DNA from: a virus | Virus record (IMG/VR): IMGVR_UViG_3300027782_000038 | Direction: 5' to 3' (one strand) | DNA: 64,000 nucleotides | Part shown: piece by piece, positions 26,882-49,216 of the stretch | How positions within the stretch are numbered: the first letter of the stretch is position 1 | Layout of the letters: each line of letters begins with the position of its first letter | Translations under genes and position numbers: made by a program | The notes under the pieces: generated by a model | Database searches by the model: none | Told to the model about the DNA's origin: nothing | Seen by the model: only the letters and a program-made list of their open reading frames with translations

Positions 26882-26944
26882 TGTTGTTTTTTTACAACAT
26901 TCTGAGACCTGTCTATTGACAGGTTTTTTTATTTGTGTTACAAT
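26882..26944 (+). promoter_or_regulatory. Early sigma70-type promoter with upstream TGTTG-N8-CAACA palindrome
   Basis: Palindrome 26882-26899; TTGACA 26916; 17 bp; TACAAT 26939. Confidence 0.8.
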
Positions 26945-26970
26945 GGTATATACTTATTGGAGATATTATT

Positions 26971-27348
26971 ATGATGGTATATGGCAAAATTCCAAAATCC
27001 AAAATTCGCAAAGTTACTAAAAAAGTGCAAGAACAGCATGATGAATGGTTAAAAACACATCAACCAAAAGTCATAGTTACTAAATCCTTCAAAAAACCGT
27101 TATCAAGACACCTTCCGAGGGTACCAGTTGGTCGTGAAACGCCAAATTACCCATCCTTAGCGACAAATTTTTCGGGAGCACTCACAAAATCTGGAATTAT
27201 GAAGGAATATCATCTAATGACAGCTGATGAGCGAAAGAAAATTGATGATCTTGGTATGTGTGTTGCACCGTTACACAAAGGTAATTACATATATGTTACT
27301 GAAGGTATGAATCCTGCTGGTTTTGGCAGAAAAAATGAGGTATTATGA
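26971..27348 (+). CDS. Hypothetical basic protein
   Basis: GGAGA SD; APLHKGNY motif common in T4-like small proteins. Confidence 0.6.
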   Translation: MMVYGKIPKSKIRKVTKKVQEQHDEWLKTHQPKVIVTKSFKKPLSRHLPRVPVGRETPNYPSLATNFSGALTKSGIMKEYHLMTADERKKIDDLGMCVAPLHKGNYIYVTEGMNPAGFGRKNEVL

Positions 27349-27497
27349 TGAAGAAAATAAATTTTACAATAAAGTTAGAGCGTCCTCATTGCAGGACACC
27401 TATTCCTGCTCGTCAAAAGCATAAAATTGACACTAAGTACACTCGTAAACCTAAACACAGGAGAAAGAGTGATGATACCAAATTGGTCCAAGAGTGA
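27345..27497 (+). CDS. 50-aa basic peptide with ArfA-like YxRKxKH motif (not in ORF track)
   Basis: MMKKINFTIKLERPHCRTPIPARQKHKIDTKYTRKPKHRRKSDDTKLVQE; GAGG SD; ATGA overlap. Confidence 0.55.
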   Translation: MMKKINFTIKLERPHCRTPIPARQKHKIDTKYTRKPKHRRKSDDTKLVQE

Positions 27498-27751
27498 ATG
27501 GCGTGAAATGAGCGAATATCTGTCTAAATTGCCCGCAAAAAAACTAACGGATGAACAAAAATTCTTTAAAGCTTTGATAAAAGCTAAAGAATCCGGTAAA
27601 CTTTATCAAAATGATCAAGAACATCAATTACACTAAAGGTAAAAAATGCATTACGAATGGAAAATGTTAGAAACGATTATTCGTCAATGGGCTGTTTTGT
27701 CTGGATTTGAAAAAGATTATGAAGAATATAGAAAACTCAAAGAAACAACTG

Positions 27752-27928
27752 ATGCAAAGTAATACCTACACAGCAAATGTTGTTAGTATTGAATCTAACG
27801 GTGATGCAATCCTTGAACTTCCTCAAAAATTGTGTGATACAATGGGTTGGGGTGAAGGAACTATACTCGACATTTCCACGGAAGTTGGAACTGGTGCAAT
27901 AATTATAAAAGAAGTTAAAAATGTGTAG
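27752..27928 (+). CDS. AbrB/MazE/SpoVT-like DNA-binding protein
   Basis: GDAILELP...MGWGEGTIL pattern. Confidence 0.7.
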   Translation: MQSNTYTANVVSIESNGDAILELPQKLCDTMGWGEGTILDISTEVGTGAIIIKEVKNV

Positions 27929-27930
27929 GA

Positions 27931-27993
27931 TGTTGTATAAAAACAACAGTTATACAAATATTGCTTGACAGAAATCACGGTTCATGAGATAAT
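27931..27993 (+). promoter_or_regulatory. Early promoter with upstream palindrome
   Basis: TGTTGTATAAAAACAACA 27931-27948; TTGACA 27965; 17 bp; GATAAT 27988. Confidence 0.8.
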
Positions 27994-28016
27994 AGTACAT
28001 CTACTGGAGAAATTAC

Positions 28017-30209
28017 ATGGAATTAATTCAATCTAAATCATTACTTGCCAAATTGATGGCAACCGAAAACTTGATTGTTGAGCAACGCAACGTATCTACC
28101 GCATCTTTTAATGTTAAAGATCGTGTTCTCACTTTGCCAATTTTAGATAAAGATATTTCTGCCGAACTTTACGATTTATTGGTTGGGCATGAGGTCGGCC
28201 ACGCTTTATGGACGGATCAAGAATTGCTCCTCCGTGGTATTGATTTGAAAATTGCACGTTCTGTACTGAATGTGATTGAAGATGTTCGTATCGAACGAAA
28301 AATCAAAAACAAATATCCTGGTATCCGGACATCTTTCATTAAAGGTTACCGTGAACTTATTGCGAAAGACTTTTTTGGTACTGCCGGTCTTGACTTAAAC
28401 GATCTTAATTATATTGATCGTGTCAACCTGTATTCTAAAGGTGGCGCAAATGCCGGTATTAAATTCATTGAGGTTGAACGTGACCTATTGAAAGAAATTG
28501 AATCTACCGAAACACCGGATGATGTTATTGTCGTTGCTAAAAAAGTAATGGAATACCTGAAAGAAGAAAAAGAGGAAAAAGAGAAACAGAATCCAAAACA
28601 GGAAAATGATCAATCTGATGATGAATTGGAAGAATCTAATTCCGATTATGATGATGAATCTGATTATGGTGATGAAGATGAAGATCAAAACCAATCTTCT
28701 TCCAATTCTGAATTTGGTGAAGAAGAAGGTGATGAATCGGAAACCGATAATTTGGGTTCACAAGCTGATACTGGTGATAAAGAAGAATCGGAACAACAGG
28801 AAAGTACCGGTAGCGAAGCTGGTAGAAAAAATGAAGAATTGAAATCACATACTGATGAAAATTTCCGTCAGAATGAAAATAAATTGTATGTTGATGACAA
28901 ACGTGTTTACTACTATGGTAATGTTCCTAACATTCCAACCAAAGATGTAATTGTTTCACATAAAGTTTTGTGGAATCGTTATCGTGAATTTTTTGTTGAT
29001 TTAGAGAAAAACAGATATTACACTGGAAATGGTCATGACCATAGTGATGCATTGAAGAACTTCCAAAAGTTGCGTACTGAAGCAAATAAAGTTGTTTCAT
29101 ACTTAGCTAAAGAATTCGAATTGCGTAAAAATGCAGATCAAATGAAACGGGCTTCTGTTTCTAAGACAGGCGATCTTAATATGAATAGAATTTTCTCATA
29201 TAAGTTTAGTGAGGATATTTTTAAGAAGATCACCGTTATTCCTGGTGGTAAATCACATGGTTTGGTTATGTTTATTGATTGGTCTGGTTCTATGAGTGAC
29301 CACCTTCAAAACACCATGAAACAATTGATTAACTTGGTTATGTTTTGCAAGAAGGTTAATATTCCATATGAAGTATATGCTTTCACAGATAACTATGACG
29401 ATAACTTCCAAATAGAAAGAAAAGTCGGTGATATTTGTGTTGGTGATTTCAAATTGTTGAATATTTTATCAAGCAAAATGTCAGCATCAGATTTTTCATA
29501 TGCTGCATCAGCTCTTGTTCGTTACAGTTCATCAAGACGTAATGTTATTTGGCCTTCATGGTTTTGTCTAGGTGGTACTCCACTAAATGAAGCCGTCATG
29601 GCAGCAATGAATGTTGTACCTGAATTTCAGAAAGCATATAAGCTTCAAGTTGTTAATACCGTATTCTTGACTGATGGTGAAGGTGCAAATAATTATAACA
29701 TTTGGACGGAGAATCCTAATCCCGGCGGCGCCTTGTACGAAGGATTCGGAGATACAAATTCATCATCTAATTATAGATGGACTCGTTACTTGACGATTCG
29801 TGATCCAATCACAAAAAATCAGCAAGTTGCTGGATCTGATTCCAATCGGGTTTTGACTTCACATTTTATTAAGTTGTTGAAAGCTCGCACCAACAGTAAT
29901 ATCGTTGGTTTCTATGTATTGTCTGGTCGTGAACTTGGTCGTAATTTGTATTCTTTCTTTGGTTCTGCAGCAGATAATTCAAAACTGAAAGCTACTTTCC
30001 GTAAAGAAAAGAGTTTAACGGTTACTTCATCAGGATTTGATGAATACTATTTGCTTCGTTCTGAAGGTCTAGATACGGAAGAAGATACTGAATTGGAAGT
30101 AAAAGAAAATGCCACAACCCGTGGTTTGGTTTCTGCCTTCACTAAGTTTTCTGGTGGACGCCAATCAAGTCGTGTTGTTTTAAATCGTTTTATTAATATG
30201 ATTGCCTAA
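28017..30209 (+). CDS. CobT-like protein: metallopeptidase-like N-terminus, acidic linker, VWA domain
   Basis: HEVGH, NVIEDVRIE, IDWSGSM (MIDAS), GTPLNEA, FLTDGE. Confidence 0.85.
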   Translation: MELIQSKSLLAKLMATENLIVEQRNVSTASFNVKDRVLTLPILDKDISAELYDLLVGHEVGHALWTDQELLLRGIDLKIARSVLNVIEDVRIERKIKNKYPGIRTSFIKGYRELIAKDFFGTAGLDLNDLNYIDRVNLYSKGGANAGIKFIEVERDLLKEIESTETPDDVIVVAKKVMEYLKEEKEEKEKQNPKQENDQSDDELEESNSDYDDESDYGDEDEDQNQSSSNSEFGEEEGDESETDNLGSQADTGDKEESEQQESTGSEAGRKNEELKSHTDENFRQNENKLYVDDKRVYYYGNVPNIPTKDVIVSHKVLWNRYREFFVDLEKNRYYTGNGHDHSDALKNFQKLRTEANKVVSYLAKEFELRKNADQMKRASVSKTGDLNMNRIFSYKFSEDIFKKITVIPGGKSHGLVMFIDWSGSMSDHLQNTMKQLINLVMFCKKVNIPYEVYAFTDNYDDNFQIERKVGDICVGDFKLLNILSSKMSASDFSYAASALVRYSSSRRNVIWPSWFCLGGTPLNEAVMAAMNVVPEFQKAYKLQVVNTVFLTDGEGANNYNIWTENPNPGGALYEGFGDTNSSSNYRWTRYLTIRDPITKNQQVAGSDSNRVLTSHFIKLLKARTNSNIVGFYVLSGRELGRNLYSFFGSAADNSKLKATFRKEKSLTVTSSGFDEYYLLRSEGLDTEEDTELEVKENATTRGLVSAFTKFSGGRQSSRVVLNRFINMIA

Positions 30210-30221
30210 AAAGGAAAAAAT

Positions 30222-30416
30222 ATGTTTAAAGAAATTGCAGCAGAAAACAAACGTGTTCGTATTGAACAGTCTGATATAGGTTATTCGGTAACTTTTTATA
30301 TGGATAACCGATTGATGAATAAATCTACCGTTCAGTCATTACATGAAGCCAATGAACTTGCCGATCAGTTTATTGAAGATAACATTTCACCAACTTTGTT
30401 GAATGAAGCGTCATGA
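30222..30416 (+). CDS. Hypothetical protein
   Basis: AAGGA SD; ATGA overlap with the next gene. Confidence 0.55.
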   Translation: MFKEIAAENKRVRIEQSDIGYSVTFYMDNRLMNKSTVQSLHEANELADQFIEDNISPTLLNEAS

Positions 30417-30697
30417 TTGAGTTTGATGACCAGACTAGGGAAGCCTTGTTAATTACACAGGAAGAATGTGCTGAAGTAACACAGGCTATCTCTAAAGTAT
30501 TCCGTTTTGGATTTGATTCCGTTTGGCCAATTGATGATTCATCTCCAAATAACAAGGAACGGTTGGAAGAAGAAGTTGGTGATCTTCTTGCCATGATTGA
30601 CATCCTTGTGGAGAAGTGTATAATATCAGATTGGAATGTCAATCAAGCAAGACATAAAAAGAGACAGAAATTAACCATGTGGTCTGGCATCAAATGA
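30413..30697 (+). CDS. MazG-like NTP pyrophosphohydrolase
   Basis: QEECAEVTQAISK..RFG, LEEEVGDL. Confidence 0.8.
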   Translation: MIEFDDQTREALLITQEECAEVTQAISKVFRFGFDSVWPIDDSSPNNKERLEEEVGDLLAMIDILVEKCIISDWNVNQARHKKRQKLTMWSGIK

Positions 30698-30814
30698 ATA
30701 TTCATGAATTAATTAATTTTTTACATCGTGTTTGGTGTTGGATACCGCATGATAATCCGGTTAGAAACGAAGTAAAAGAACTAATCAATAGATTAAAATC
30801 ACAGATTAATTAAA

Positions 30815-30985
30815 TTAAGAGTAAAATGCACTTTTCATTGTATAACGTTCATACTCTTTAAGAATCCGTTCAACGTCAGCAGGAGAGGTTGGGCGTTTTG
30901 AGGCAACATATAAGTCGAGGCGTGACTGTAAAATCTCAGAATTAATGTTGAATAGTTTGTTAAGTAGCCTAAGAAATGTTTTCAT
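30815..30985 (-). CDS. 56-aa protein, DUF3563-like (not in ORF track)
   Basis: MKTFLRLLNKLFNINSEILQSRLDLYVASKRPTSPADVERILKEYERYTMKSAFYS; AAAGGA SD; TATAAATA at 31024-31017 on the - strand. Confidence 0.7.
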   Translation of the reverse strand: MKTFLRLLNKLFNINSEILQSRLDLYVASKRPTSPADVERILKEYERYTMKSAFYS

Positions 30986-31245
30986 TTGAAGTCCTTTGTT
31001 GTTTATGATATACTTTTATTTATAAGATAATTAGTGTAACTACTAATGTATTTAAAATTATTTTTAAGAAAATATGAAATCTCAATCTGCTTTGTATGGT
31101 AAATTTAAAAAAGAATTTATAGGTCCAATTTTACCTAGAAAGATAGCTAGAGAACGTGGTATTGGTTTTGGTGTTCCTATGCCTGCTGATAAACCACCAA
31201 GATGCGATAAAAAAGATAAGAATTTTAAAATTTAATGAGGAAATT

Positions 31246-31506
31246 ATGATTAATGTATTAAAAAATAATGTAGCAGTTGAGTTGATTGAAAAAGAGAAGG
31301 TAACGGCTTCTGGTCTCATTCTTTCGGCCGCCGATCCAACTGAAGCCAACAAAGGTATCGTAATTGCTGTTGGACCTGATGTTACTTCCGTTCAGGTAGG
31401 TGATATTGTTTTGCCCAATTGGAATGGAAATACTGGTAAATTCACACATGAAGATCAAGACCTTTGGATTATTCCAGAGAAACAGATCGTTGGTATATTC
31501 GATTAG
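31246..31506 (+). CDS. groES: Co-chaperonin GroES-like
   Basis: TASGLIL, GIVIAVGP, VQVGDIV, I.EKQIVG. Confidence 0.88.
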   Translation: MINVLKNNVAVELIEKEKVTASGLILSAADPTEANKGIVIAVGPDVTSVQVGDIVLPNWNGNTGKFTHEDQDLWIIPEKQIVGIFD

Positions 31507-33322
31507 AGGTTATTATGGACGTAACGGTAGAAGAAAAATTCTTACATTGTATTAATTTGGTTTCTAAATTAAGTAGATCAATCAACAACAATACAAGAGT
31601 ATCCTTTCAGTTGAAATTGCTAGTTGATGAACTTGTTAAACTTAGTATAGAATATGACGAAGGTCCTAAACTTGCTGATCCCACAAAACCACTTCATGGT
31701 TTATATGATGACCACAAGATGGATTATGGTGTCCCTTTACCTGAGAAGGATATTTCATGGCTGACACAGACGAAGTAAACGAAATAAAAAAACCAGTAAA
31801 ACAGAAGGTTGAGTATGACGGTTATTACCGTATTGATTCAACCACTCGTGATGGTAAAGTTGTGCACATATATTGTCGTGGCCATCAATTGAAATCATGG
31901 TTAAATTTTGAGAATTCAATGAGCTCCATCATATTGTCGGAGTATCACCAGGTGACAGAAATGGAATATATGGATCATCATTGGACGGCTTATGCTTATC
32001 CTATTGATGAAGAAACTGTAACTGTTCATATTAAACAACCAGTAGAGAAACCTTTGGTCGTACAGAAACAGAAAGTTCCAAAGAATAATATCAAGACAAA
32101 GAAAAAAGTATCTAAGACTGATCGTAATATCGGTGATCTTTCCGAATTTATGAAAAAATAAACAAAAGTATTTTAAATGTTAACAAAATATAAAAGAACT
32201 TCTAAAAAGACAGGTAACTTCAGTAGAAGAACAAGGACAATTAACGCTAATGGTCGTGTAACTGAATCTTTTTCGTATAAGACACCTGGTAAAAATGGAG
32301 TAAGAAGAACTGTATCAACAAATAATAAGAGTGGTGCTGTTAAAACTACAATAACATCATTCAGTAGTAATGGATGGACTCAAGTAAGAACGAATACAAC
32401 GAATACACAAAGTAAAAAGTCTAATGGAAATTCTGTAAAATTTTTGTCTCCATCGGAAACTGGAGCACTTGCAATTTTATTACTAGTTGTAATTATTATT
32501 TGTTTTATTGTTTATTATTTTTATTGGATAATAGTAGCTTCTGTATGGGCATTAGTATTTTATACAGTATGCAAAGTGTTCGATAAACATCAAAAAAGAC
32601 TTGATGATGAGCATAACAGCAGAATTTTTTACGAACCTTATATTAACAAAGATGATTGAAATGAAACAACTAGAAATACAATTTTTCTGGCCACTAACAG
32701 AACAGATTCCCATGGATCTAGACTTTACCGAATCTGATCGGTATGCCGAAGAACTCAGAGAAGAAAAGTTGAAGAAACAAGCAAGAGAGAGTGTTGTCTG
32801 TAATATTGGTCCCACCACCACGACATGGGGAATGCCAACGATGCCTTCATTGGTTATCAATGGTAAAGATACAATTAGTTACCTGAATGTGGGTAATACT
32901 AAACTTGGTTTGAACAGTATTCCAAAGTGGTATCAGAAATTATTATATAAATTATTGGGTTTTTCATGGAGTAAGAAATAAAATGGGAATGTTTGACCAG
33001 TTATATTACAAAGACGTAGAGTATCAGACCAAAGATACTCCAGATCAAGCCTTATCGAATTACAAGATTGAAGCGGATCAGGATTCTGGTCATGAGTATC
33101 TGTGGTTGGAACATTGTGATACTGAATGGATCAAAGATGAAGGTCATATCTTTGGTGCTTACTTACAAGAATCTAATCATCATTGGGTACGGTGTGATGA
33201 CTTTGATGGTAATATTGTATTCTATCGTAATACAGATAGGACGTATAAGAAATGGAATCAATACTCTGCTCTCTTTATGAACGGTAGAATGATTAAACTT
33301 ACTAAGTGGGAAGGTGCTGATT

Positions 33323-33553
33323 ATGAATGAACGAATTAGAGAACTTGCTGAACAGGCTGGTATCACAACCAATTTGAATACTGATTACTTTGAACGAGAT
33401 ATCAACAAATGGATTGACTATTATTCGGAAAAGTTCGCCGAGTTAATTATTAAACAATGCTGTGATGCTGCCGATGACTGGTATGAAAATCAATATATGA
33501 TTCATTGTGATCCTGCTCAACATATTAGAGATAATTTCGGAGTTGAAGAATGA
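33323..33553 (+). CDS. MNER-FAELI-FGVEE paralog family, copy 1
   Basis: MNERIRELAEQAG...EKFAELII...FGVEE. Confidence 0.7.
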   Translation: MNERIRELAEQAGITTNLNTDYFERDINKWIDYYSEKFAELIIKQCCDAADDWYENQYMIHCDPAQHIRDNFGVEE

Positions 33554-33740
33554 TTAAACTATCAATTAAAGATTTGAAAAAGATCAAAGATATTGTTAAT
33601 GAACTTGGTATAGAGGAGTTTACTCTTAAACAAGAAAGTGTAAGTGGTATTGGATCAATATTGATCTTGGAGTGTGGAACATTTGTTGCAGATTATCCTG
33701 CCACAATTGTGGTTGAAGTTAACGGTGTGGAGGCTTGGTG

Positions 33741-34016
33741 ATGAACGAACAATTACAGGAATTTTATAGACAAGCAATACAATCCACTAATACGGATGAA
33801 TGCCTTGATATGCCAAATAAACAGGTACAAAGGTTGATTCTAACAAAGTATGCTGAATTGATTGGGAAAGAATATCTTGACTGTATTGATATTATGGAAA
33901 AGATTGCTAATAGTTCTAACGCCAGTATTCCTGAAAACTATGACAAATACACCTATCTTAAAACATTAGATGATCTGAAAGGTTTATTGAAAGTACACTT
34001 TGGAGTTGAAGGATGA
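33741..34016 (+). CDS. MNER-FAELI-FGVEE paralog family, copy 2
   Basis: MNEQLQEF...KYAELIGKE...HFGVEG. Confidence 0.65.
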   Translation: MNEQLQEFYRQAIQSTNTDECLDMPNKQVQRLILTKYAELIGKEYLDCIDIMEKIANSSNASIPENYDKYTYLKTLDDLKGLLKVHFGVEG

Positions 34017-34819
34017 ACCAAGAAGAATTGAAGAAAGACTACTCACTCCCATGTGTGGTATATTATATTATTGCTAATAAAAATTTCAGACAAGTATACA
34101 CTATTGATGACATTGAGAAACCATCAGAAGAACTTTTTGATTGGCATGTGTGTGATTTGATGACTTTGGGTAGATCAATCCCAGAATATGAAGATTGGGC
34201 TAGAGGATATATGGAAATGGCTTTGGAGAATAAGCAAAAAAATGCTGGATATTTACTTACATTAGAAAAGTTTTCGATAACATCATTTGACGATATTGAG
34301 ACATTTTTTGATGAAAATTGTGATAATCTAGCATTTCAGTATTTTGCTGATGATAGGCTTAATAACTATTTTGAGATTATAAAATGAATCAAGATAGGGG
34401 CGAAGAATGACCCGTAGAGCAATTAAACTGCAAGGTACTGATACCGTACTAGAGTTATCCAAGTTTGCCACGCCAAAGACCGACAAAGAGTTTATTCATT
34501 TAGACAAACTGCCTGACGGAACATGGAGATTACTGTATAATGTAGTTGGTACTGATATTAAGAATGTTTCTGCATTAACCATTGTGAGAGAAGAATGACC
34601 TTTATGTCCTTTGAAGAATACAAAGCGATTTTTCCTCCATCCGAAGAAATGGTAGAAGGAATAACCTATGAAGTCCTGAGAAACAAATACTATGATGGGC
34701 ACGAATTGACTACTGACCAGATTAAAGGTCGGATTGCTTGTGATATAGAAGTAATTCTCAGATATGACTACGAAGTACTAAAGAAAGTAGTCGAGGGAAA
34801 AAACACTGGAAGTCTCTGA

Positions 34820-35340
34820 GGACCTCCTGGAAATCCTCCGGGAAATCCTCCGGGAAAAAATCTGGAGACCTCTGGGACCTCCTGAAAAAAATTCTGAATC
34901 CTTCTGGTGGGCTCCAGAAAATAAAAATTTGAAAGATTTAGTTTGACCTGGTGGGGCTTTTTGTTGTTTCCATACAACACAGCGCCCCGCCTCACCACCA
35001 TTGCGTCTCCAGACACCAGCCCCAGCGCCGAAACCGTACCACCACACGCTCTCCGCAGCGCTCATCGCCGAAACCCTGAGCGTCCCTGAGCATTTTCTGT
35101 TGTTTCCATACAACACTTTGTTGTTTTTGTGTCACTCTGTCGCTTTCCGGCACAATATCTGCCGATACTGCTTGCTCAACCCGCCAAAACCTGTATAATG
35201 GTATCTGTTGAGTCGAGAGTGGTAGCAGTTAAAAGTGTTGTTTTTATACAACAGGTGCTTGTGACAAAAAGCAACAGGTCGCAAGATTTTAATTGACACC
35301 ACTACCAACTCCTGTATAATGGTTTTATTGAGTAGTTAAA
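34820..35340. repeat. GC-rich non-coding control region with short direct repeats, several palindromic operators and two early promoters
   Basis: Tandem AATCCTCCGGGA; identical TGTTGTTTCCATACAACAC at 34962 and 35098; CGCCGAAACC x2; -35/-10 pairs at 35172/35194 and 35293/35315. Confidence 0.7.
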
Positions 35341-35362
35341 CAGTCATTTCAAAGGAAATCAT

Positions 35363-35757: not shown

Positions 35758-38077
35758 ATGAGTAAAACCCTCACTCTGGTCCTTACTCAGCACCAAATGG
35801 ATGTGCTTTATGACGCTCTGACGGAGTATCAAAACTCTGCAGAACCCGATGATGCTGAGGTTGCTTCTGAAGTTATATCGGAAATGTACAATCAATTGAC
35901 GGCGCAGGGATAATGAGTAAAATCATTTATGACGCTGTTGCGTTGCTGTGCTTTTCGCTGTCCGTTCTTTTCGCTTTTGTTGTCTTATCTGAGGTATTCT
36001 GAAATGCATGAAATGAATCGCTGGCACGCCAAGTGCATCCAAGACCGTGATCGTGCTGCTGAGCTTGCTCGGGTGCGTGCTGAGTTAAAAGCAAAGTTGG
36101 AAACTGCTCTGCTGATGCATCGGTTGTGCCATCCAAAAGGTAAATCGTAGGTTAACTGAGGTATACTGAAATGGTTTAAATTGCTCGCTAACATTGCTGT
36201 CGGTCTGAGCCCCGACCTGAATATGGTGAGATTCCATATTATAAGTGATTTCCGTATGAGTTGCGATAACATCAATGCATAGAATTCGCTTATAATATGT
36301 TATTTTAAATGGAGAAGTTATGCAAGATACCACTTTTGTGCAAACCTACGCTTCTGATGCGGAAAACGAATTCGACATTTTCCAGTATTCTGTGAAGGTT
36401 GGTTATTATGTCGAATACTTTGCACACCCTGAAACTGGCGAGAAATTCTATTCACCGGTCTATGAGGTTTACTATGACGATCAAGGTACCGATGAGGAAC
36501 CCGATTATTGTTCGTCCGTGATTTTTGATGATTTGAATACCGCACGTACTGACTTTGAGTATTTTGTTGAAAATTCGATATACTGAGGAATTGATTATGT
36601 TATCATGGGAAGAAATGACGCCTATTGAGCAGGCGCAATTGGTGTACTGGGATGCCTATAAGGATGCCTACGGGTTCCGCCCCCGTAATATTGACACAAC
36701 CGAGTGGTTGTTGTCGGATTTCCAAAAGGAGATTCTGGTGCTCGAGCAGGTTATCGCTGAGAATGAAGTCCAACGTAAACTGGACGAAGCGGTTGCTGCT
36801 GATAAGGTCGAGAGGACTATTCTGAACCTCTTGGAGTCCGGTGCAAAAGATCGTGAAATGTGCATCCGTTGGTTGTTAGAAGCGCATGATGCCGGTGAGG
36901 ATCGGGATTATCTGTGTTTTCTACTCGGTGTGGAGTACGGGTACTTTGATGAAAAGGTCTGAGGTCGCTCGGAGGTGCTCTGGGATTAACCAGGATTATC
37001 GGAGGCGTTGTGCCTTCAGACTTAAACCTGCCCACAGCACCACCAGTGCGACTTCACCGGCGACAATATTTCATAATGCGAAAAGTTTCATAATATGAAA
37101 TGTGGTTATTAGTGTCATAAGTGAAATTCACTGTTTTATTGGTTTCTCTAGTGGATTTCACTGATTACATTCGTAATTCCTGATTACATTATACAGGTTT
37201 CTGTATTATTCTATTATTCTCTACTATAAGGTTACTATGACTAGTGATAAAGTGAAGGTTTTTATTGTACGTGCTGAAAATGGTGGTTGCCCCGAGAGTT
37301 ATATTATGGGTGTCTATCCTACTGAGGCATTGGCGGAGGCACGTTGCGATTCGTTGGAAAACGATGAGGAATACTGTTTTGAATATATCTGGTTCCAAAC
37401 GGTTGAAGTTGGTGCTGAAGGTGTTGATTGTGAATTGTGTAACCGATAGGAGTTATTATGAAAATTAAAGAAACGTACAATGGCAATATCAAGATTAAGC
37501 TTACTCCTTATGAGTTTGCTTTAATTGAAAGGGTGTTCGGTGAGTTAACTTCTGGTATTATGAAAGAAATGGATCTTGATGTGGATCAACGGAAAGATAC
37601 ATTACGAATTTACGAAGAAATGAATGAATTTAGTGGAGATACTTTTGGACTCTAATGACGATCGGTTTGTTTGTTATGAAATGATTGCTGATACGGTTTC
37701 TGGTTATTGGTATTATGATACGGATGAGCAGGATTACGTTTTTGTGCCTGCTGATCTAAGTTAAATTCTCTTTAGTGTTGTGTGGATACAACACTATTAT
37801 ACAGGCCGCTTGAAATTGCTTGTGGTTTATCAGGATTCCTGTATAATGGTATTTGTTGTTTAAAGAAAAAGGAATTATTTTGGATAAAGAAACTGAATTG
37901 CACCGACAATTGTTGGAAATCGTCAAACAGTATTCTTCTGGTTTACTGATGGACGTTGAAATGTTAATGTGTTGTGAAACACTTCTAAAGATGTATGAGG
38001 GCGTTAAGTTGAAGCATGACCCGAATACTGGTCTGCGTGTTCCTGAAGGTTATCTCTTTACTAAAAAGGCAGTTTAA
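35758..38077 (+). other. Early small hypothetical genes (35758-35913, 35913-36002 TM peptide, ~36003-36150, 36320, ~36597, 37237, 37458, 37853)
   Basis: Short ORFs with SDs; WDAYKDAYGFRPR motif in the ORF ending at 36962. Confidence 0.55.
37776..37847 (+). promoter_or_regulatory. Early promoter with upstream palindrome
   Basis: TGTTGTGTGGATACAACA 37776-37793; CCTGTATAATGGT with -10 at 37842; -35 weak. Confidence 0.7.
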
Positions 38078-39911: not shown

Positions 39912-39988
39912 TGTTGTTCCTATACAACACCATTATACAAAAGTCTTGCCTACCAGCAGGATTCCTGTATAATGGTATCTGTTGAGTC
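39912..39988 (+). promoter_or_regulatory. Early promoter with upstream palindrome
   Basis: TGTTGTTCCTATACAACA 39912-39929; TTGCCT 39946; TATAAT 39968. Confidence 0.8.
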
Positions 39989-41486: not shown

Positions 41487-43110
41487 ATGAGAATCCACAA
41501 ACGCAGGTACTTGAATGCCTTGAAAAAGGCAGCCAAGATCAACCGATACCTCAAGAAAGGTTATCATGTGTTTTACGGTGGTGATCGGATTGATAAAGGT
41601 TTTGTATTAGAAGATAATCAACAAATAGTATTAAAACTATCTGATAATTTTTCTGTGATATTTTACGAAAACAGTCCCGATTGGGACCACGGATATTGGA
41701 CAAGTATCAAGAAATACAACGAAGAATTTTCAGAATATTTTGAAGTGTATAAACCATCAGCAAGGATTGAATTATGAACGAAATAATCGAGAGGTTGGCT
41801 AAAGATCATTTACTACACGAAAAGTACAATAGTGACGGTGATGTTATTGAAGGTGATTACTATGAATTCGATAAGCAAGAGTTGTTAAAATTCGTGGAAT
41901 CTATCGTTGATGAATGTATTGACCATGCTGCCGCTGAAGAGCATGATCAGATTTATTACTTGTCTAACCATTTTGGATTTAAATGATGAACGAAAAACAA
42001 ATTGATATTAATAAAATGTTTACCTATCTGGAACAAGCAGAATCACTTGTTGATTCAGTATATCATTATGCCATAGAAACAGGCAACAGCGAATTGCAGG
42101 AACTTATGCATATGGCCGGTACTGCGTGTAATGATGGTCGAAATATGTTACCAAAACCTGGTATGTCGAAAGATGAAATCATGAGTAAATTGGATTTGGC
42201 ACAACAATTGCTATCTGATGTTTACCATGATGCCTGTGAAAAAGGTAATTCAGAAATTGAATCTCAAATGTCTTGTGCCGATTCTTGTATCGGTGAAGCA
42301 ATGGATAGATTGGAGAAAGAATGAGTTTTATGCAAGAAGCAGTCCGTGAGTGGACGTGGAATGTAGGCCAAGATCGAGCAGACCAACAATGGATTCTTTC
42401 CGATTATGATACATGGGAACGTAATCCACATTATACTGGTCCCGATCAAGGTCATCCTGAAGATGAACCTTATGAGGATGAAGAATGAATGAAAGATTGA
42501 AAAAGTTGGCTGAGCAAGCTGGTTACTTTATTAAGTTTGAAAGAACTGGAGATAATGTTACTGTGGTTTATACAAAGGAACCAGGTACTGATGGTGACCT
42601 TGCGTTATTCACCGAGTTGATTGTGAAAGAATGTGTCAAGGCATTATGGACTGAAGATTGTAATGTTAGCGATCTAGCAATAATTGATTTTAACGAAAAG
42701 AAACGTAAAATTTACGAACATATGGGAGTAGAATAATGGGTACCAGAAGCCTAACGTATGTGTATGACAAGGAAATGTCAGATTTGCCATTTATGTGTAT
42801 GTACCGCCATTATGATGGTTATCCATCCGGTCACGGTGCAGAGTTGGCCAAGTTTTTAAAGGATGCCGATCACAACGGAATCCCTTGTTTGGCGGCATCA
42901 ATGGTTGCTCACTTTAAAACTGGTCCTTACAATATCTACCTTTATCCACCTGATCTTGACCAAGATTGTTGGCAAGATTATGAATATCATGTTTATAACG
43001 GATATGTGAAAGTTACCAAGATTCGACAAGAGAAAGTTTTATTCCATGGTACATGGGAAGAATTTACCGAATTCTGTAAAGCGGATGAAACGGAAGAATC
43101 CGTGGAGTGA
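41487..43110 (+). other. Small hypothetical genes (41487, 41774, 41983, 42321-42488, 42485, 42736)
   Basis: Overlapping ORFs; 42736 carries the conserved Y.HYDGYP motif; 41774 and 42485 belong to the MNER family. Confidence 0.6.
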
Positions 43111-43187
43111 TGTTGCCAAAATACAACACCACGCAAAATAGTTGTTGACATTCTCTACCAAACCTGTATAATGGTATCTGTTGAGTC
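43111..43187 (+). promoter_or_regulatory. Early promoter with upstream palindrome
   Basis: TGTTGCCAAAATACAACA 43111-43128; TTGACA 43145; TATAAT 43167. Confidence 0.85.
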
Positions 43188-43201
43188 AATCAGGAGATTT
43201 T

Positions 43202-43459
43202 ATGTTGAAAGTAAATATCGGTGATGTTATTCGTTCCTACGATTTCAAACCAATGGTTGGTCGTGAGGATTGTTTTGTTGAAGGTATTGTAGAACGTGAA
43301 ACAAACGAAAATGGTTACAATGCCTTCAAGATTACGGTAATCAAGGATTCGTGGTCTGATTCGGAAGATAAAGGCCGAGTCGGCAAGATTGTTTATGTAC
43401 CTGTGAAAGTTAGTTACAATGATTATCCAGGTCGTGTTATTAATTTATCAAGGATTTGA
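43202..43459 (+). CDS. Hypothetical protein (SH3-like beta fold possible)
   Basis: AGGAG SD; IGDVIRSYDF. Confidence 0.6.
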   Translation: MLKVNIGDVIRSYDFKPMVGREDCFVEGIVERETNENGYNAFKITVIKDSWSDSEDKGRVGKIVYVPVKVSYNDYPGRVINLSRI

Positions 43460-43461
43460 TT

Positions 43462-43611
43462 ATGGGTAAAATGAAAGAGTTGTATCAGGATATTGTTGAT
43501 TTGTTAGATGATTCGGAAAATACTCCGTTGATTATTGCTAATAAATTGAATGTGCCTGTTGAAATGGTTTTAGATGTTATGTCAACTTTAGAGAATGAAT
43601 ATTATGAATAA
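43462..43611 (+). CDS. 49-aa HTH-like protein (not in ORF track)
   Basis: TPLIIANKLNVPVEMV pattern; AAGGA SD. Confidence 0.5.
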   Translation: MGKMKELYQDIVDLLDDSENTPLIIANKLNVPVEMVLDVMSTLENEYYE

Positions 43612-44779
43612 AAATGCAAAGTTGTTTGTTGATGCGGCCGAAGCAATCTTTGGTGTCGGTGCAATTCTGACCCGTGATGGTGTTAATCACGTTGTATCCG
43701 AATCAGGCGCCCCCTATCCGTTCTGGCTTGTCACTAAAGCCGAACATCGTGCAGGTCGTGGACAGTATAAACTGCCTACTTCCGGCGTCTCCAAAACGTC
43801 TCCAACGCCCGTTGAGTCCGTGTTAACTACTAACGAACAAGAACCTATGACCGTTGACCTTACATCACAGGTATTATCGTTCCGTCAACCTAAACTGATT
43901 GATGAATCTGACTCTGCTGTGCCTGCTGTTTTCCCTGATTATGTGCCATTTGGTTTCTACAAGGATTTGGTTAACATTATCAGTTCTAAGGCATACTATC
44001 CTGTGTTTGTTACCGGTTTATCTGGTAACGGCAAGACCTTGATGGTTGAGCAAGTATGTGCCAAACTTAAACGTGAATGTATCCGTGTTAACATTTCCAT
44101 TGAAACCGATGAATCTGATCTACTCGGTGGTCCCACTCTGGTCAATGGTAACGTGGTCAATCGTGATGGTCCTGTTATTCAGGCAATGAAGAAAGGCGCA
44201 GTATTGCTGATTGATGAAGTTGATCGTGGTTCAAATAAGTTAATGTGTCTACAAGGCATCCTAGAAGGCAAACCATATTACAACAAGAAAAACGGCGAAA
44301 TGGTATTTCCCGCTGAAGGTTTTAATGTGGTTGCCACGGCTAACACTAAAGGACGTGGATCTGATGAAGGCAAATACTTATCGCAAATTCTTGACGATGC
44401 GTTTCTCGAACGTTTTCCGATTACAGTTGAACAGGAATATCCTGATACTAAGACAGAGAAAAAGATCCTTACTCCCCTGATTGAAGATAAAGAATTTGTT
44501 GAGAATCTTATTCAATGGGCAGATGTGGTTCGGCAATCTTACTTTCAAGGTGCAACCGATGAGATTATCTCCACTCGCCGTTTGGTACACATTGCAAAAG
44601 CATATGGTATCTTCAAAGATCGTAAGAAAGCAATTGAGTTGTGTGTGAATCGTTTTGATACCGAAACTAAACTGGCATTCCTTGATTTGTACAGTAAAGT
44701 GGACGGTTCAATCAATCCGGTTGATCCAATTGCAGTGGCTGCCATGGAAGTCTTGAAGAATGAAGAAGTACCATTCTAA
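43604..44779 (+). CDS. cobS: CobS/MoxR-like AAA+ ATPase
   Basis: GLSGNGKT, LLIDEVD, ATANTKG.G, AFLERF, ISTRRL. Confidence 0.88.
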   Translation: MNKNAKLFVDAAEAIFGVGAILTRDGVNHVVSESGAPYPFWLVTKAEHRAGRGQYKLPTSGVSKTSPTPVESVLTTNEQEPMTVDLTSQVLSFRQPKLIDESDSAVPAVFPDYVPFGFYKDLVNIISSKAYYPVFVTGLSGNGKTLMVEQVCAKLKRECIRVNISIETDESDLLGGPTLVNGNVVNRDGPVIQAMKKGAVLLIDEVDRGSNKLMCLQGILEGKPYYNKKNGEMVFPAEGFNVVATANTKGRGSDEGKYLSQILDDAFLERFPITVEQEYPDTKTEKKILTPLIEDKEFVENLIQWADVVRQSYFQGATDEIISTRRLVHIAKAYGIFKDRKKAIELCVNRFDTETKLAFLDLYSKVDGSINPVDPIAVAAMEVLKNEEVPF

Positions 44780-44887
44780 GTCTGGTATATTTGAATACGG
44801 ATGGTTGCCAAGGGGTCTACCATCCATTATAATGAGTATGTAGCCCCTTAGATTTACATTATATTAACTTGATTAGGAAATTATATT

Positions 44888-45247
44888 ATGATTCGTACTG
44901 GAAAACAAAATCGCCATGAGAAAATCACCGTAACATTGCTGTCTGGCAAACCTGTTACACCTGCTGAGATTGCTGACGTATTCAAAGGCACAGACCAAGA
45001 AGCTGTATTGTATCGACTATCAACCAATATCTATAATATTCGGTTAGATGGCGGTGTTATCAAAGTACACAAGTCTGGTCGTTCCGTGACTGCCTACCAA
45101 TTGATGAACCCACAAGACTTTGATACTACTGGTCGTTACAATCGGGCTGTATATCAGAATACCAAACCTATTGTAGTTCAAACACCTGTTGTTAAGTCTG
45201 TAGAACCTGTGGTTGAAACAGTAGAATCTGAAGTATTAACTGCCTAA
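44888..45247 (+). CDS. Putative winged-helix DNA-binding protein
   Basis: VTPAEI...LSTNIYNIR..G.VI......AYQL pattern; own promoter (TTGCCA...TATAAT) near 44805-44833. Confidence 0.55.
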   Translation: MIRTGKQNRHEKITVTLLSGKPVTPAEIADVFKGTDQEAVLYRLSTNIYNIRLDGGVIKVHKSGRSVTAYQLMNPQDFDTTGRYNRAVYQNTKPIVVQTPVVKSVEPVVETVESEVLTA

Positions 45248-45253
45248 CATTAA

Positions 45254-45357
45254 GTGGGTTGAAATATACCCACCATATTGAAGTACATTTCAGGTAGGCT
45301 AGCCAACATTCTGTTTTATCGAACAGGATCAGGAGTGTACTTCAATATGTTTTTTTA
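45254..45357 (+). ncRNA. Structured intergenic element (long stem ending in a U-tract)
   Basis: GTGGGT/ACCCAC hairpin; perfect 14-bp CATATTGAAGTACA/TGTACTTCAATATG stem followed by a T-run. Confidence 0.4.
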
Positions 45358-45372
45358 CCGTGAGGAGTTATT

Positions 45373-45690
45373 ATGTTATCATTTACAGAAACAAAACCTG
45401 GTTTATTCCCTGATCAGGAAGAAAAGGATCAATTTAAAGATATCTTACGCAACTATGTGGTTGATGTTACATTCACCAAGAAAGATGGTACAGAGCGTAA
45501 GATGAAATGTACACTCAAAGAAGATATTATACCACAAAAAGTTACATCCGAAAGTATTGTACAAGTTAAAGTTAACCGTACATTTTCAGATGATGCTTTG
45601 CCTGTGTATGATATTGAATCCAATGGTTGGCGTTCATTTCGTTGGGATTCGGTTACATCAATCGAGTGGTCATTAGGAGAAGATGAATGA
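45373..45690 (+). CDS. WYL-like/SH3-fold protein (DUF2693, T4 gp61.1-like)
   Basis: VTFTKKDGTER.M.CTL, VYDIE..GWRSFRWD. Confidence 0.8.
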   Translation: MLSFTETKPGLFPDQEEKDQFKDILRNYVVDVTFTKKDGTERKMKCTLKEDIIPQKVTSESIVQVKVNRTFSDDALPVYDIESNGWRSFRWDSVTSIEWSLGEDE

Positions 45691-46029
45691 AAGTTAACTT
45701 AACCGGTTTCGTTTGGTTATCATTCTGTGCCTGTGTTGGTTATCTTATTACTAATTCATTGTATGGTACAATTGCAGGTTTGACCGTTGGTCTTTTTCTA
45801 ACTTTACTTGCTGAGATTTTTCTATGAAATATCCATTTAGTTCGATTAAAGATTGGTTAGTTCTATCGGCAATGTTCATTGCTGAAATGGGAACTCTCGC
45901 TGCATTTATTTTTATTGGTGTGAGTGTGTTATCATGAAAATTGTTTTTACATTACTCACCTTGTTTATCATTATATTACCTTTTAGTTTTTTTATATGGG
46001 CAGTTAATGCATTCAATGGAAGTATGTGA
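45687..46029 (+). CDS. Three ATGA-coupled membrane micropeptides (45687-45827, 45824-45937, 45934-46029)
   Basis: 46, 37 and 31 aa, each strongly hydrophobic; below the ORF track cutoff. Confidence 0.55.
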
Positions 46030-46280
46030 TGACTACAGAAGAAATTGTTAATCTAATTGCTGATCTTGCCAAAGAAGTTGACTTGGAAGATCCCATTGAT
46101 TTTGGAATGTTGTTAGTTGATGAAGATACATTATGGAAAATGATGGCATCAAATGTATTAGAACTTATGCGTGTTGATGGTATCAATGAAAAGATGGTGA
46201 TGATGGCAACGATTACTAAGTTGTTGGTTGAAAACTTTGTGCTTCATGCACAGATGATGAAGATTCTACAAGACCGGTGA
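46026..46280 (+). CDS. Hypothetical protein
   Basis: EDPIDFG.L, ATITKLLVENF. Confidence 0.6.
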   Translation: MMTTEEIVNLIADLAKEVDLEDPIDFGMLLVDEDTLWKMMASNVLELMRVDGINEKMVMMATITKLLVENFVLHAQMMKILQDR

Positions 46281-46290
46281 AGGAAAATAA

Positions 46291-46863
46291 ATGTTTGTTT
46301 TTGATGTGGAAACTTTAGGTAAAGAATCGAATGCTGTAATTTTATCAATGGCGTGTGTCCATTTTTCAGATGAAACTAAATCATCATTTCAATACATGAA
46401 AGATACATCATTCTTTGTTAAATTCGATGCCATAGATCAACGTAAAAGATTGAAACGTACATTCACCATGTCATCATTAGAATGGTGGAAGAAACAATGT
46501 CTGAATGTTAGAATCAAATCATTTAAACCTGCACCTGATGATGTAAAGTTGGAAGATGGTATTGAATTGATGAGGTCTTGGGCTAGTCAATTCAGAGAAT
46601 CTAAATCGTGGGTATTTGCCCGTGGTAATCTAGATCAATTGGTATTAGATTCGGTTGAAGAACAATTAGGTATTGAACCTGTATTTCATTTTGCACGTTG
46701 GCGAGATATAAGAACGGCTATTGATTTTATGTACAACACAACCACCGGTTATTGTAATGTAAATTATCCGGGGTTTGATTCTTTTTTAAACATTACTAAA
46801 CATGATCCCGTTGATGATTGTTTACTTGATGCGATGATGTTATTACATGGAGATGGAAAATGA
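46291..46863 (+). CDS. DnaQ/DEDDh 3'-5' exonuclease (DexA-like)
   Basis: FDVETLG, RDIRT, H.P.DD. Confidence 0.8.
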   Translation: MFVFDVETLGKESNAVILSMACVHFSDETKSSFQYMKDTSFFVKFDAIDQRKRLKRTFTMSSLEWWKKQCLNVRIKSFKPAPDDVKLEDGIELMRSWASQFRESKSWVFARGNLDQLVLDSVEEQLGIEPVFHFARWRDIRTAIDFMYNTTTGYCNVNYPGFDSFLNITKHDPVDDCLLDAMMLLHGDGK

Positions 46864-49160
46864 GTGCGTGGTTGATTATTGTTACTGGTTTGATTTATGG
46901 TTACATTGCTGTTGAGCAAGGACTCAAAGGTAATCTTGCAATGTTCATTATCTATTCCGGTTACGCTTCCTCTAACATTGGTCTTTATATGATGGCGGTA
47001 AAATGAAAATACCTTATGAAGTGGCAGATGCTATTACGTTGAAAACTTTGAAATGGCAACGTAAGTATCTAAAGAAAGAATTGAAACATTTTAAAGAAGA
47101 TCCACGAACAGATGAAAATCCAGATGGTTATTGGATGCATCCTGAAGATGTGGGTAAAAATGCCAGAATGATTGTTACATTAACTGAAGTTATTAAATAT
47201 TTTGGAGGTGAGTGAATGAAACACAAACACTACGACATGATCGTTGCGTGGGCGGAAGGTAAACAGATTCAAGTTAAAGCTTTTAATTTGACATGGGACG
47301 ATAGAGAAAAACCCCTTTGGTGTTTAAACAGGGAGTACCGCATCAAGCCTGATCCAAAGCCTGATGTTGTGCGAAATATTATTATTGAAGCAACGTATTC
47401 GGATTCTGTGGATTTTGTGCAAGTATATGTGTCAAAATATCTACCATCCAATTTACGCCTGACTTTTGATGGCGAAACAGGTAAACTTAAAAAGGCAGAA
47501 GTATTATGAATTTATATGTCGGTAATTACTGGTGTCCGTTTCCTCGTTCAGAATACGGTGGTGTATGGATTGTTGTGGCTGAAAATGGAGAACAAGTTTG
47601 TCAGATGTTGTTAAAAGAACAAGGCGATTATAATGGAGAATATGATGATCGTATTCCGGGTGCCGTGTTAAAAGCTGAAGTGTTTCCTCTTGATACATCT
47701 AAAATGTTACTCAAGAATCCTCGAATTGTTGATACCTTTTTCACATAGGATTTATTATGAACTATATTGCCAAACCAAACCTGTTTAACTTTGAACACTC
47801 TAAGACTTTTAAAGATGCCAAGAGTGCCATTGTGTATCTGAATAACCGATTGTCTGACAAAGGCGTACCTGAGCATTTAGATTATATGTTTGTTGCACCT
47901 AAAGTATCAGATAAACAATTAAGATTTGCTATTGAAGAATACTGTGGTATTGGTAAATTAATTATTGAGGAATAATATGAAAGTTGTGATTAATACTGAT
48001 TGGGGTGGGTTCGGTTTATCTGATGACGCAATTCGCCGTTATGCCGAACTCAAAGGCATTACTTTGGTAGAAGAAACCAATGAATATGGAATTACTTTCT
48101 ATGTTGATCAAATAAACGATGAAAGTTATTTTGAGGCTCATGATTTTGATCGTACTGATCCTGCTCTGATTCAAGTGGTGGAAGAAATGGGTGATGCTTC
48201 ATTTGGATGGGCTGCCAAACTAAAGATCGTAGAAATTCCTGATGGTGTGGATTGGTATGTTTCCGACTATGATGGTGTTGAACACATTGCAGAACGACAT
48301 AGGACATGGCATTGATATGAACGAACGAATTAAAGAATTGGCCGAACAGGCTGGGATACCAACTTACTATCCAGCAGGCATTGCAGAAAGACTGGAAAAG
48401 TTCGCCGAGTTGATTGTGAGGAAATGTATTGACTCAACCCTGAGCCTACATGATACTGCGATTGATAATCAGTGGAATTTGGATGAAACATTTCATGTGA
48501 TTGTTGATACGATTGTAGAAGATTTAGATATGCAACACATTTTTCGGAGTTGAAGAATGAAATTCAGAAAGAAACCTGTAGTGATTGAATCAATACAATG
48601 GTTTAAGAACGGTGACCATCCTAACGTAGTGCCTGATCCGGTTGGACACCCTTACGATAGTTATTATGGAATTCATACGTTAGAGGGATTTATGCGAGTT
48701 ACCCCTGGAGATTGGATTATTACAGGTGTACATGGCGAACATTACCCATGTAAACCTGATATTTTTGAATTAACTTACGAAAAGGTAGAATAATGTTTAT
48801 CTACACAGTAAACGACATAATCGGTGCAATTTTTTTAGGGTTGATGTTATTGCTTGGTTTGTTTATTTTAGTTTTGTCTGTTATTGACAAAGTGAAACGT
48901 AAATTTAGGAGTAAGAAATGAACGCTGGATATATTCGCAAATTGGTATCTGATGATCTAAGGGAAACTCTGTTTTTCTGTGGTCTAATTAAGGATTGGCA
49001 TTGTAAAACCAGAGAAACCGATAGCAAGAATAAGACTCGGTATCGTATGGAAACGACCATAGGAGACATATTCGTATACGGACCTAGGCAGATATACTTT
49101 AAGGATCAGAAGTTCTCCTCCCTCGATTCCATGCGTCAGGAACTAGGAAGATACTTGTAA
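46860..49160 (+). other. Small hypothetical genes (46860-47006 membrane, 47003, 47216, 47506, 47757, 47965, 48317 MNER family, 48557 PGDYG-like, 48918)
   Basis: Overlapping ORFs; 48557 has TLEG.M...PGDWII.GV.GE.YPCKPDIF. Confidence 0.6.
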
Positions 49161-49163
49161 AAG

Positions 49164-49216
49164 TGTTGTTTTTATACAACAAAATGGTTGACCTGGATCT
49201 GGATGTATGTTATAAT
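49164..49216 (+). promoter_or_regulatory. Early promoter with upstream palindrome
   Basis: TGTTGTTTTTATACAACA 49164-49181; TTGACC 49188; 17 bp; TATAAT 49211. Confidence 0.8.

Follow-up and report, generated by a model that had tools for sequence, protein, structure and literature searches.

The stretch of viral DNA considered here (IMG/VR record IMGVR_UViG_3300027782_000038; 64,000 nucleotides, referred to as a whole as the window) comes from a T4-like myovirus of fresh water that has not been cultured, and part of it is dotted with an 18-bp palindrome, TGTTG-N8-CAACA (hereafter, the box), that mostly stands ahead of sigma70-type promoters. Our analysis establishes the box as a genuine regulatory element that is sharply defined and occurs widely. 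As to what it does, we tentatively favor, at somewhat less than even confidence, the reading that a dimeric protein of a betaproteobacterial host binds it and, from this upstream position, would boost a subset of early promoters.

All nine exact copies placed in the window by the original prediction were confirmed (Table 1), as compared with a mean of 0.19 and a maximum of 2 in 100 dinucleotide-preserving shuffles of the window, and all nine are confined to positions 26882-49181. Allowing one mismatch adds only six sites when 4.3 are expected, that is, a near-background number, and the motif is therefore sharp. Every copy is intergenic (9/9), with six of them starting 0-16 nt past a stop codon, and seven of the nine have a sigma70-type -35 hexamer downstream at a gap of 16 bp (four copies), 6, 26 or 39 bp. 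The gaps of 16, 6 and 26 bp agree with those first claimed, while the other parts of that account fared differently. A 16-bp gap had also been assigned to the promoter at 35172, which is unsupported, as the nearest exact copy lies 56 bp upstream. The degenerate copies proposed at 35119 and 35138 each carry mismatches at 3 of the 10 arm positions, which is chance level, as the window has 379 matches of this quality, or one in roughly every 170 bp. A third degenerate copy, given as 35260, has its real register at 35259 and is plausible by its gap of 16 bp to the -35 at 35293, although its two mismatches leave it weak; the window holds 65 matches with two arm mismatches. Finally, since no box accompanies the strong promoters at 30597, 44805, 53162 and 56818, the box marks only a subset of the sigma70-type promoters. 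The idea of an early regulon was thus right in tying the box to certain promoters and overstated in its extent, several equally strong promoters being box-free.

Table 1. Positions of the box, its partner promoters and associated features in the window (gaps run from the box to the -35 hexamer).
Feature	Position	Strand	Remarks
Degenerate palindrome, 2 arm mismatches	25291..25308	.	28 bp before the -35 of the strong promoter 25337-25365; weak
Palindrome TGTTGTTTTTTTACAACA	26882..26899	.	2 nt past the stop of the open reading frame (ORF) 26694-26879; gap 16 to -35 at 26916
Terminator-like hairpin and T run (26904-26927), overlapping the -35 of TTGACA-17-TACAAT (26916-26944)	26904..26944	+	
Palindrome (27931-27948), 16 bp, TTGACA-17-GATAAT (27965-27993)	27931..27993	+	Before the gene for a 730-aa peptidase
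Palindrome without promoter downstream	34962..34979	.	Left border of a 118-bp G+C-rich insert
Palindrome (35098-35115), 56 bp, weak -35 TTGCTC (35172), TATAAT (35194-35199)	35098..35199	+	Palindrome identical to that at 34962
Palindrome (35236-35253), 2-mismatch copy (35259-35276), TTGACA-16-TATAAT (35293-35320)	35236..35320	+	Gap 39 from the exact copy to -35 at 35293, 16 from the 2-mismatch copy
Palindrome (37776-37793), 26 bp, TTGTGG-16-TATAAT (37820-37847)	37776..37847	+	
Palindrome (39912-39929), 16 bp, TTGCCT-16-TATAAT (39946-39973)	39912..39973	+	Before an AAA ATPase gene
Palindrome (43111-43128), 16 bp with A-rich 'aaaatagttg', TTGACA-16-TATAAT (43145-43172)	43111..43172	+	Before the 43181-cobS operon
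28-nt block over the -10 and start region (AAACCTGTATAATGGTATCTGTTGAGTC)	43160..43187	+	Recurs at 35187 (100%), 39961 (93%) and 37835 (79%)
Winged-helix protein, 119 aa, phage-encoded candidate binder	44888..45247	+	Predicted fold
Palindrome (49164-49181), 6 bp, TTGACC-17-TATAAT (49188-49216)	49164..49216	+	Before a metallophosphoesterase gene

Is the distance between box and promoter also constrained outside the window? The genome-wide scan of motif and spacing proposed with the original prediction as its check was run on relatives of the phage, and it gave multiple copies per genome and phased gaps. Searching IMG/VR for the box followed by 16 bp and TTGACA returned at least 119 loci, and the 119 loci listed contain another 79 palindromes, as compared with an expectation of about 3. 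In a second scan only the palindrome itself was sought (TGTTGTNTNNANACAACA), which leaves the spacing unbiased; 46% of its 112 sites have a strong promoter within 60 bp, as compared with 2.7% of random positions. The spacing was then determined in a pooled sample of 137 dereplicated sites from environmental phage contigs, none of them chosen by spacing. The gap to the -35 is 5-9 bp in 51 of these and 13-16 bp in 36, with none at 10-12 bp and small groups at 25-31 and 36-40 bp; the modes are 6 and 16 bp, and a period of 10.5 bp fits best (Rayleigh p ~3e-12). The steps of one helical turn claimed from the window alone were therefore upheld in a largely unselected sample. With a 17-bp spacer, the box would be centered at -50.5, -60.5, about -71 and about -82, i.e., on one face of the helix upstream of the -35.

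Several further features accompany this spacing. In most sites of the 16-bp class an A-rich stretch, 'aaaatagttg', directly precedes the -35, where a proximal UP subsite would lie. Most partner promoters read TTGACA-16/17-TATAAT or are one or two changes off, and many have an extended -10. The cobS promoters of related phages have a gap of 5-7 bp in some lineages and of 15-16 bp in others, and tandem boxes 18-29 bp apart occur, as do pairs such as 35098/35236. A TGTTGA half-site near the transcription start of four window promoters was considered as an additional component and set aside as a lineage feature, being present in only 7-12% of box promoters elsewhere.

The conservation of the box bears on whether it is read as DNA or as RNA. 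Across 100 dereplicated sites the box has the consensus TGTTGY-N6-RCAACA with a mostly A/T N6; the arms are invariant, and centers, spacers and flanks have fully diverged, the flanks holding no information. The center consists of runs of A or of T and, because A-rich and T-rich centers are equally frequent, the strand is irrelevant. Positions 6 and 13 are T-A in 71 sites, T-G in 13, C-A in 12 and C-G in 2, the last with 2.25 expected if the two positions were independent. Compensatory change is thus absent, C-A mismatches being about as common as T-G pairs, and the half-sites vary independently, as in a DNA site of two-fold symmetry. Folded as RNA, the box gives a 6-bp stem of -2.4 to -4.5 kcal/mol and lacks a U tract, so that it has neither of the two parts of an intrinsic terminator (a G+C-rich stem and a U tract). 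Many copies of the box come right after the 3' end of a tRNA or after a true G+C hairpin and its T run. It is thus the sequence rather than the pairing that is conserved, and the box belongs to the downstream promoter. Because the sequence is conserved, covariation is absent and the stem is weak, we take the box to be a site for a symmetric, probably dimeric, protein. The alternative that it acts as the 3' hairpin of the upstream transcript, in its stability or processing, is disfavored and seems to us extremely improbable. It could draw on the 6-bp stem and on the six window copies that closely follow stop codons, but it is hard to reconcile with the lack of compensatory change at 6/13, the equal frequency of the two types of center, the many copies that lie past a real terminator and would so be rarely transcribed, and a constrained distance that is the one to the downstream promoter.

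A hairpin does occur beside the first box of the window. The hairpin and T run at 26904-26927 hold the -35 hexamer in the loop and 3' arm and are separate from the palindrome, and this layout of a terminator over a promoter is kept in diverged relatives past their RNase H block (L112, L055, L053, L072, L032 and L096). The element at 26904-26944 is a true composite of the promoter-early stem-loop (PeSL) type known from T4-like phages.

Could the box itself then be the stem-loop half of a mobile PeSL cassette, kept for recombination and gene shuffling in a hyperplastic region, perhaps also for attenuation, and with no dedicated binder? As in PeSLs, an inverted repeat stands just before sigma70-like early promoters among small T4-like ORFs (PMC2839356, PMC4122927). 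The 28-nt block, which covers the -10 and reaches into the start of the transcribed sequence (35187-35214, 37835-37862, 39961-39988 and 43160-43187), is identical at 35187 and 43160, and its repetition suggests either recent copying or an added constraint near the transcription start. One DNA contig (run X2) joins 34962 to 35097, skipping 34962-35097 between identical copies, although with only 20 letters on its short side this evidence is weak. The peptidase and cobS genes (28017-30209 and 43595-44779), which are neighbors in Pelagibacter phage HTVC008M (KC465899.1, 87395-91077), are parted in the window by about 13 kb of small ORFs, and box-bearing promoters precede both genes and also sit within the intervening DNA. 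The 28-nt block and the possible 34962/35097 deletion fit PeSL-style shuffling. An 18-bp repeat with a variable center is, however, a poor substrate for recombination; invariant arms amid diverged centers, spacers and flanks point to selection on sequence and not to recent copying; and recombination does not explain strict classes of distance to the -35. Moreover, the stems are weak and without a U tract, unlike the terminating G+C-rich stem-loops of RB49, and in bacteria the box is found at genes present in a single copy. On this evidence we consider it very unlikely that the box is no more than part of a shuffled cassette.

The region has other peculiarities of composition. The 118-bp insert at 34980-35097 is G+C-rich, very unlike the phage (35% G+C), and on either side of it the same 23 nt of the box region are repeated exactly (34958 and 35094); Rfam gave nothing for this insert and its folding is unremarkable (z = -2.0). 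The G+C content also rises, to 0.40-0.43, over 34-40 kb. More broadly, the window carries nearly all of its genes from 1 to about 60 kb on the + strand, with many small ORFs separated by short gaps from about 26 kb on, and it encodes ribonucleotide reductase, RNase H, ThyX, PhoH, CobS and a peptidase of the kind typical for marine and freshwater T4-like phages. Its DNA was recovered in freshwater and lake metagenome runs. Metatranscriptome contigs (run X3) overlap parts of the region and are uninformative on starts, ends and strand.

Having established the box as a promoter-linked element, we asked which phages carry it. Complete T4-like genomes of 170 kb hold 4, 9 and 11 copies and a 190-kb genome holds 2, as compared with 0-1 in controls. 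When cobS loci were fetched by protein alone, an exact box was found within 900 nt upstream in 18 of the 53 close relatives (at least 65% identity) and in 1 of the 23 distant ones, and the box is thus a feature of some sub-lineages and not of the whole T4-like group. It recurs in podoviruses of the HMO-2011 type. Two complete 58-kb genomes with terminal repeats (G009 and G010), whose portal protein has 71% identity with its counterpart in Puniceispirillum phage HMO-2011, carry 4-5 boxes at a gap of 15-16 bp and with the same A-rich spacer as in the T4-like phages. With the window, G009 shares only NrdA, NrdB, ThyX, PhoH and a few unrelated proteins. Regulatory copies of the box are absent from cultured relatives with other hosts, including those that grow on Alphaproteobacteria: the Pelagibacter phages HTVC008M and Mosig, HMO-2011, Roseobacter phage CRP-1 and Limnohabitans phage DC31. 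The box is likewise missing from Alcaligenes phage QDWS535, whose NrdA is the nearest among cultured phages, and a megablast of the region against isolate phages gave no match. Short-query BLAST for the cassette in cultured phages returned chance matches only, that in Aeromonas phage B614 being to the T run of a terminator.

Some copies lie inside genes. One of the boxes of G009 lies within the portal gene, where it is probably a coincidence: portal genes of the HMO-2011 type keep an in-frame TGTTGTT...AACAACA palindrome (G009, 6423-6440; MW202701.1, 36277-36294), which is probably a property of the coding sequence and not to be counted as regulatory. Homologs of the WYL_2 protein encoded at 45373-45690 of the window (L012, L090, L099, L103, L104, L028, L001, L018 and others) contain a box within the coding sequence, about 122-139 nt past the start and followed by 16 bp and TTGACA-17-TACACT. 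This arrangement is kept in many contigs and may represent either a promoter within the gene or a mere coincidence of the coding sequence.

Bacterial chromosomes carry the box as well. We scanned one genome each of 185,579 species for the box followed by 16 bp and TTGACA and obtained 39 matches, of which 23 fall in records of Nitrosomonas, Nitrosomonadales, Gallionellaceae or Burkholderiales, at several distinct loci. In most of the 23 the match falls in the same conserved promoter, that of a gene for a fatty acyl-AMP ligase, and others precede OmpA and further genes. In Nitrosomonas species (L235-L273; e.g., L245, 5122-5200), this highly conserved promoter consists of the box, 16 bp and TTGACA, then ...TATAAGCTGCG and a long conserved leader, and it heads a pair of fatty acyl-AMP ligase and reductase genes in about 20 species; Rfam gave nothing on these loci. 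In the order Burkholderiales, in the sense of GTDB, TGTTGT-N6-ACAACA is present in 65 of 301 genomes, the only tally to include the unpublished genome G218. All 20 of the A/T-centered boxes sampled from genomes of this order are intergenic, and 8 lie upstream of genes for outer-membrane proteins (three PorB-like porins, one Porin_4, one Porin_O_P, two FadL/TodX and one ESPR autotransporter); other sampled boxes precede a pyrroloquinoline quinone-dependent methanol/ethanol dehydrogenase, an MMPL transporter and an acyl-AMP ligase. None of the bacterial loci examined has a transcription-factor gene beside the box. A different genome background is seen in a metagenome-assembled genome labeled 'Bacilli' (G+C about 25%; L241, L251, L255, L257, L262, L263 and L266), which holds at least seven copies of TGTTGTGAGTTAACAACA followed by 16 bp, TTGACA and CCGGGGGGGG...; these cassettes head paralogous genes starting MRIINKK, with box and spacing as in the phage and the genome very different.

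What protein could bind the box? Because the box is common to unrelated phage families and to chromosomal genes of Betaproteobacteria, and cultured relatives with other hosts have no regulatory copies, we favor a factor encoded by the host. A phage-encoded candidate is the 119-aa winged-helix protein (gp44888), one of the potential binders named in the original prediction. If the box were its operator, the protein would be made early and would bind as a dimer to shut off or boost this subset of promoters, in some relatives its own promoter included. The candidacy gains from the predicted fold, a winged helix modeled with a predicted local distance difference test score (pLDDT) of 73.8 and matching SmtB/ArsR, MarR, Fur and PadR domains at probabilities of 0.9-0.98, even though the E-values of the fold search are weak (0.08 or worse). 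The gp44888 family is conserved by cobS, which its gene follows in most close relatives. Of 22 cobS loci with a box, 21 encode a member, and so do the complete genomes that hold 4, 9 and 11 boxes and the partial contig G013 (6 boxes). Two relatives (L063/G005 and L156) have an exact box about 100 nt ahead of the start of the homolog, and a one-mismatch form, TGATGY-N6-ACAACA, lies 92-107 nt before that start in 9 of 32 dereplicated relatives, as compared with 3.7% of control windows. In these relatives (loci L309, L328, L331, L332, L338, L341 and L354) the TTGCCA -35 of the winged-helix gene has TGATGY-AAAAAA-ACAACA at a gap of 8. Because the protein is, however, also encoded in 26 of 54 box-free loci, its link with the box is largely phylogenetic. 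A profile search does not find it in the complete box-bearing genomes G008, G009 and G010 or in five box-bearing bacterial genomes, in the window itself the gene for gp44888 lacks a box at its promoter, and a phage protein could not account for the boxes before bacterial porin, OmpA and FadL genes. We regard it as unlikely that the box is the operator of gp44888; this is nevertheless the main rival to the host reading, and the protein could act on the box later in infection.

Another protein shared across the phage families was considered as a binder and rejected. The window encodes, at 50554-51237, a 227-aa acidic, Trp-rich protein with more than 8000 close metagenome homologs (68-93% identity among the 120 best-scoring ones), for which a Pfam search gave no family. 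A homolog is present in the podovirus G009 (49059-49484; 157 residues aligned), and BLAST showed no other non-metabolic protein of appreciable length to be common to the window and G009. The protein is thus shared by T4-like phages and a podovirus of the HMO-2011 type. Its acidic and Trp-rich composition, judged from the sequence, is unlike that of a DNA-binding protein.

The box could also be a negative site, at which a host or phage protein damps strong promoters, by blocking access of the C-terminal domain of the RNA polymerase alpha subunit (alpha-CTD) to the UP element or by looping between tandem copies, and so acts as a timing switch. Near-consensus promoters do not need an activator, tandem boxes and pairs of the 35098/35236 type exist, and a box at a gap of 6 bp occupies the position of the UP element itself. 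Repressors, on the other hand, usually cover the region from -35 to +1, which none of the boxes does; a constraint to one face at -50/-60 is the classic mark of activators that contact RNA polymerase; and the bacterial targets (porins, OmpA) are typically very highly expressed. Taken together, these observations make damping quite unlikely.

Several observations weigh against a host activator as well. Activator-dependent promoters usually have poor -35 boxes, and the near-consensus partners of the box would be strong unaided. The minor gap classes of 3, 9 and 13 bp blur a strict one-face rule, and the A-rich spacer common to the T4-like and podovirus copies could mean that whole promoter cassettes are moving. 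A conserved winged-helix protein of the phages, gp44888, accompanies the box at nearly all T4-like loci that have one. On the bacterial side, genomes of the host type hold 1-3 good copies, which is few for a global regulator; most bacterial copies lack the 6/16-bp coupling to a recognizable promoter; and the label 'Burkholderiales' rests on record titles and an order-level sample.

Taking these points into account, the host-protein reading would operate as follows. A symmetric, probably dimeric protein would bind the double-stranded 18-bp box; its gene would most likely belong to the host, which would be a betaproteobacterium from the order Burkholderiales as GTDB defines it. The phage would set the box on one face of the helix, with its center at about -60.5 (gap 16) or -50.5 (gap 6) and more rarely at about -70 or -82, and in the gap-16 class an A-rich stretch resembling a proximal UP subsite would lie between box and -35. 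The bound protein would then aid RNA polymerase right after injection, probably through the alpha-CTD. Protein binding, host encoding, stimulation of transcription and early timing are all four points that we infer, the timing of these presumably early promoters by analogy with T4. Of the proposal that a dimeric host or injected factor activates early transcription, the symmetric DNA site thus stands, with a host-encoded factor favored, whereas activation is presumed. The window gives no sign of T4 MotA-type control, although no search for MotA or AsiA was made.

A bolder version, possible but in our view doubtful, is that a regulator of Betaproteobacteria drives porin, OmpA and FadL-type genes through TGTTGY-N6-RCAACA, and that freshwater phages of two or more unrelated families, namely T4-like myoviruses and podoviruses of the HMO-2011 type, have hijacked it to fire some of their early promoters. 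In that case the host range of uncultured phages could be read off the box from sequence alone, and gp44888 may compete for the box, later switching off these promoters and perhaps the host porin genes. If the host-protein reading is true, early transcription in the large group of uncultured freshwater T4-like phages would have its first defined control element upstream of promoters, one host regulator would be used convergently or in common by unrelated phage families, and an undescribed regulator of outer-membrane genes would be indicated in Betaproteobacteria. Since relatives on other hosts lack the box, it would also provide a host clue for hundreds of environmental phage contigs.

How does the box compare with systems already described? 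The papers searched for the motif contained nothing relevant and described no such box for T4-like phages, and a RegPrecise-type paper supplies no motif comparable with it. The closest described system is that of the PeSL cassettes of T4-like phages (Arbiol et al., 2010, PMC2839356; Comeau et al., 2014, PMC4122927). In phages PST and nt-1, the stem-loop lies just ahead of the promoter, whereas the PeSL stem-loops of RB49 and phi1 are G+C-rich, variably placed, often between or over the -35 and -10, and terminate transcription in a reporter (PMC2839356, PMC4122927). The window resembles these cassettes in its composite of intergenic inverted repeat, AT-rich stretch, sigma70-like early promoter and Shine-Dalgarno sequence, in the repetition of this composite among small ORFs of a plastic T4-like region, and in a repeat sequence typical of the phage group. 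It differs in that the box does not look like a stable terminating stem-loop: its stem is weak, has no U tract and does not covary, it is helix-phased from the -35, it stands beside separate terminators, and it also occurs in podoviruses and bacterial chromosomes. The helix-phased invariant box is thus an element added to what PeSLs comprise.

The original prediction had compared the box with operators of HexR and other RpiR-family regulators. The operators of HexR and RccR in Pseudomonas are TTGT-N7-8-ACAA and TGTAGT/ACTACA, and HexR represses zwf, edd and gap genes (PMC5489143). Although inverted TTGT/ACAA cores are common to both, this resemblance does not extend further, as the inner spacing of the box is N6 and not N7-8, and the bacterial genes behind it (porins, OmpA, FadL and acyl-AMP ligase) concern the envelope and lipids rather than the zwf/edd genes of central carbon metabolism.

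The comparison with class I sites of CRP, also made at the outset, holds in part. At lac, CRP binds a 16-bp site, TGTGA-N6-TCACA, centered at -61.5, and class I sites are also found at -71.5, -82.5 and -92.5. On this textbook comparison, the box shares the two-fold symmetry, the variable center, the location upstream of the -35 and positions about one helical turn apart, with phasing near -60.5. It differs in its length (18 bp, TGTTG-N8-CAACA) and in partner promoters that are near-consensus and not weak, and to our knowledge CRP does not use -50.5, a major class for the box. Finally, phages are known to strengthen early promoters with host proteins or UP elements, as with the A-tracts and Alt of T4 and with IHF at lambda pL and Mu Pe. 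The proposed use of the box resembles these cases in that host components would be recruited upstream of the -35 of the first promoters, and it differs from them in that the box is a discrete, invariant palindrome that the phages have in common with envelope genes of the host.

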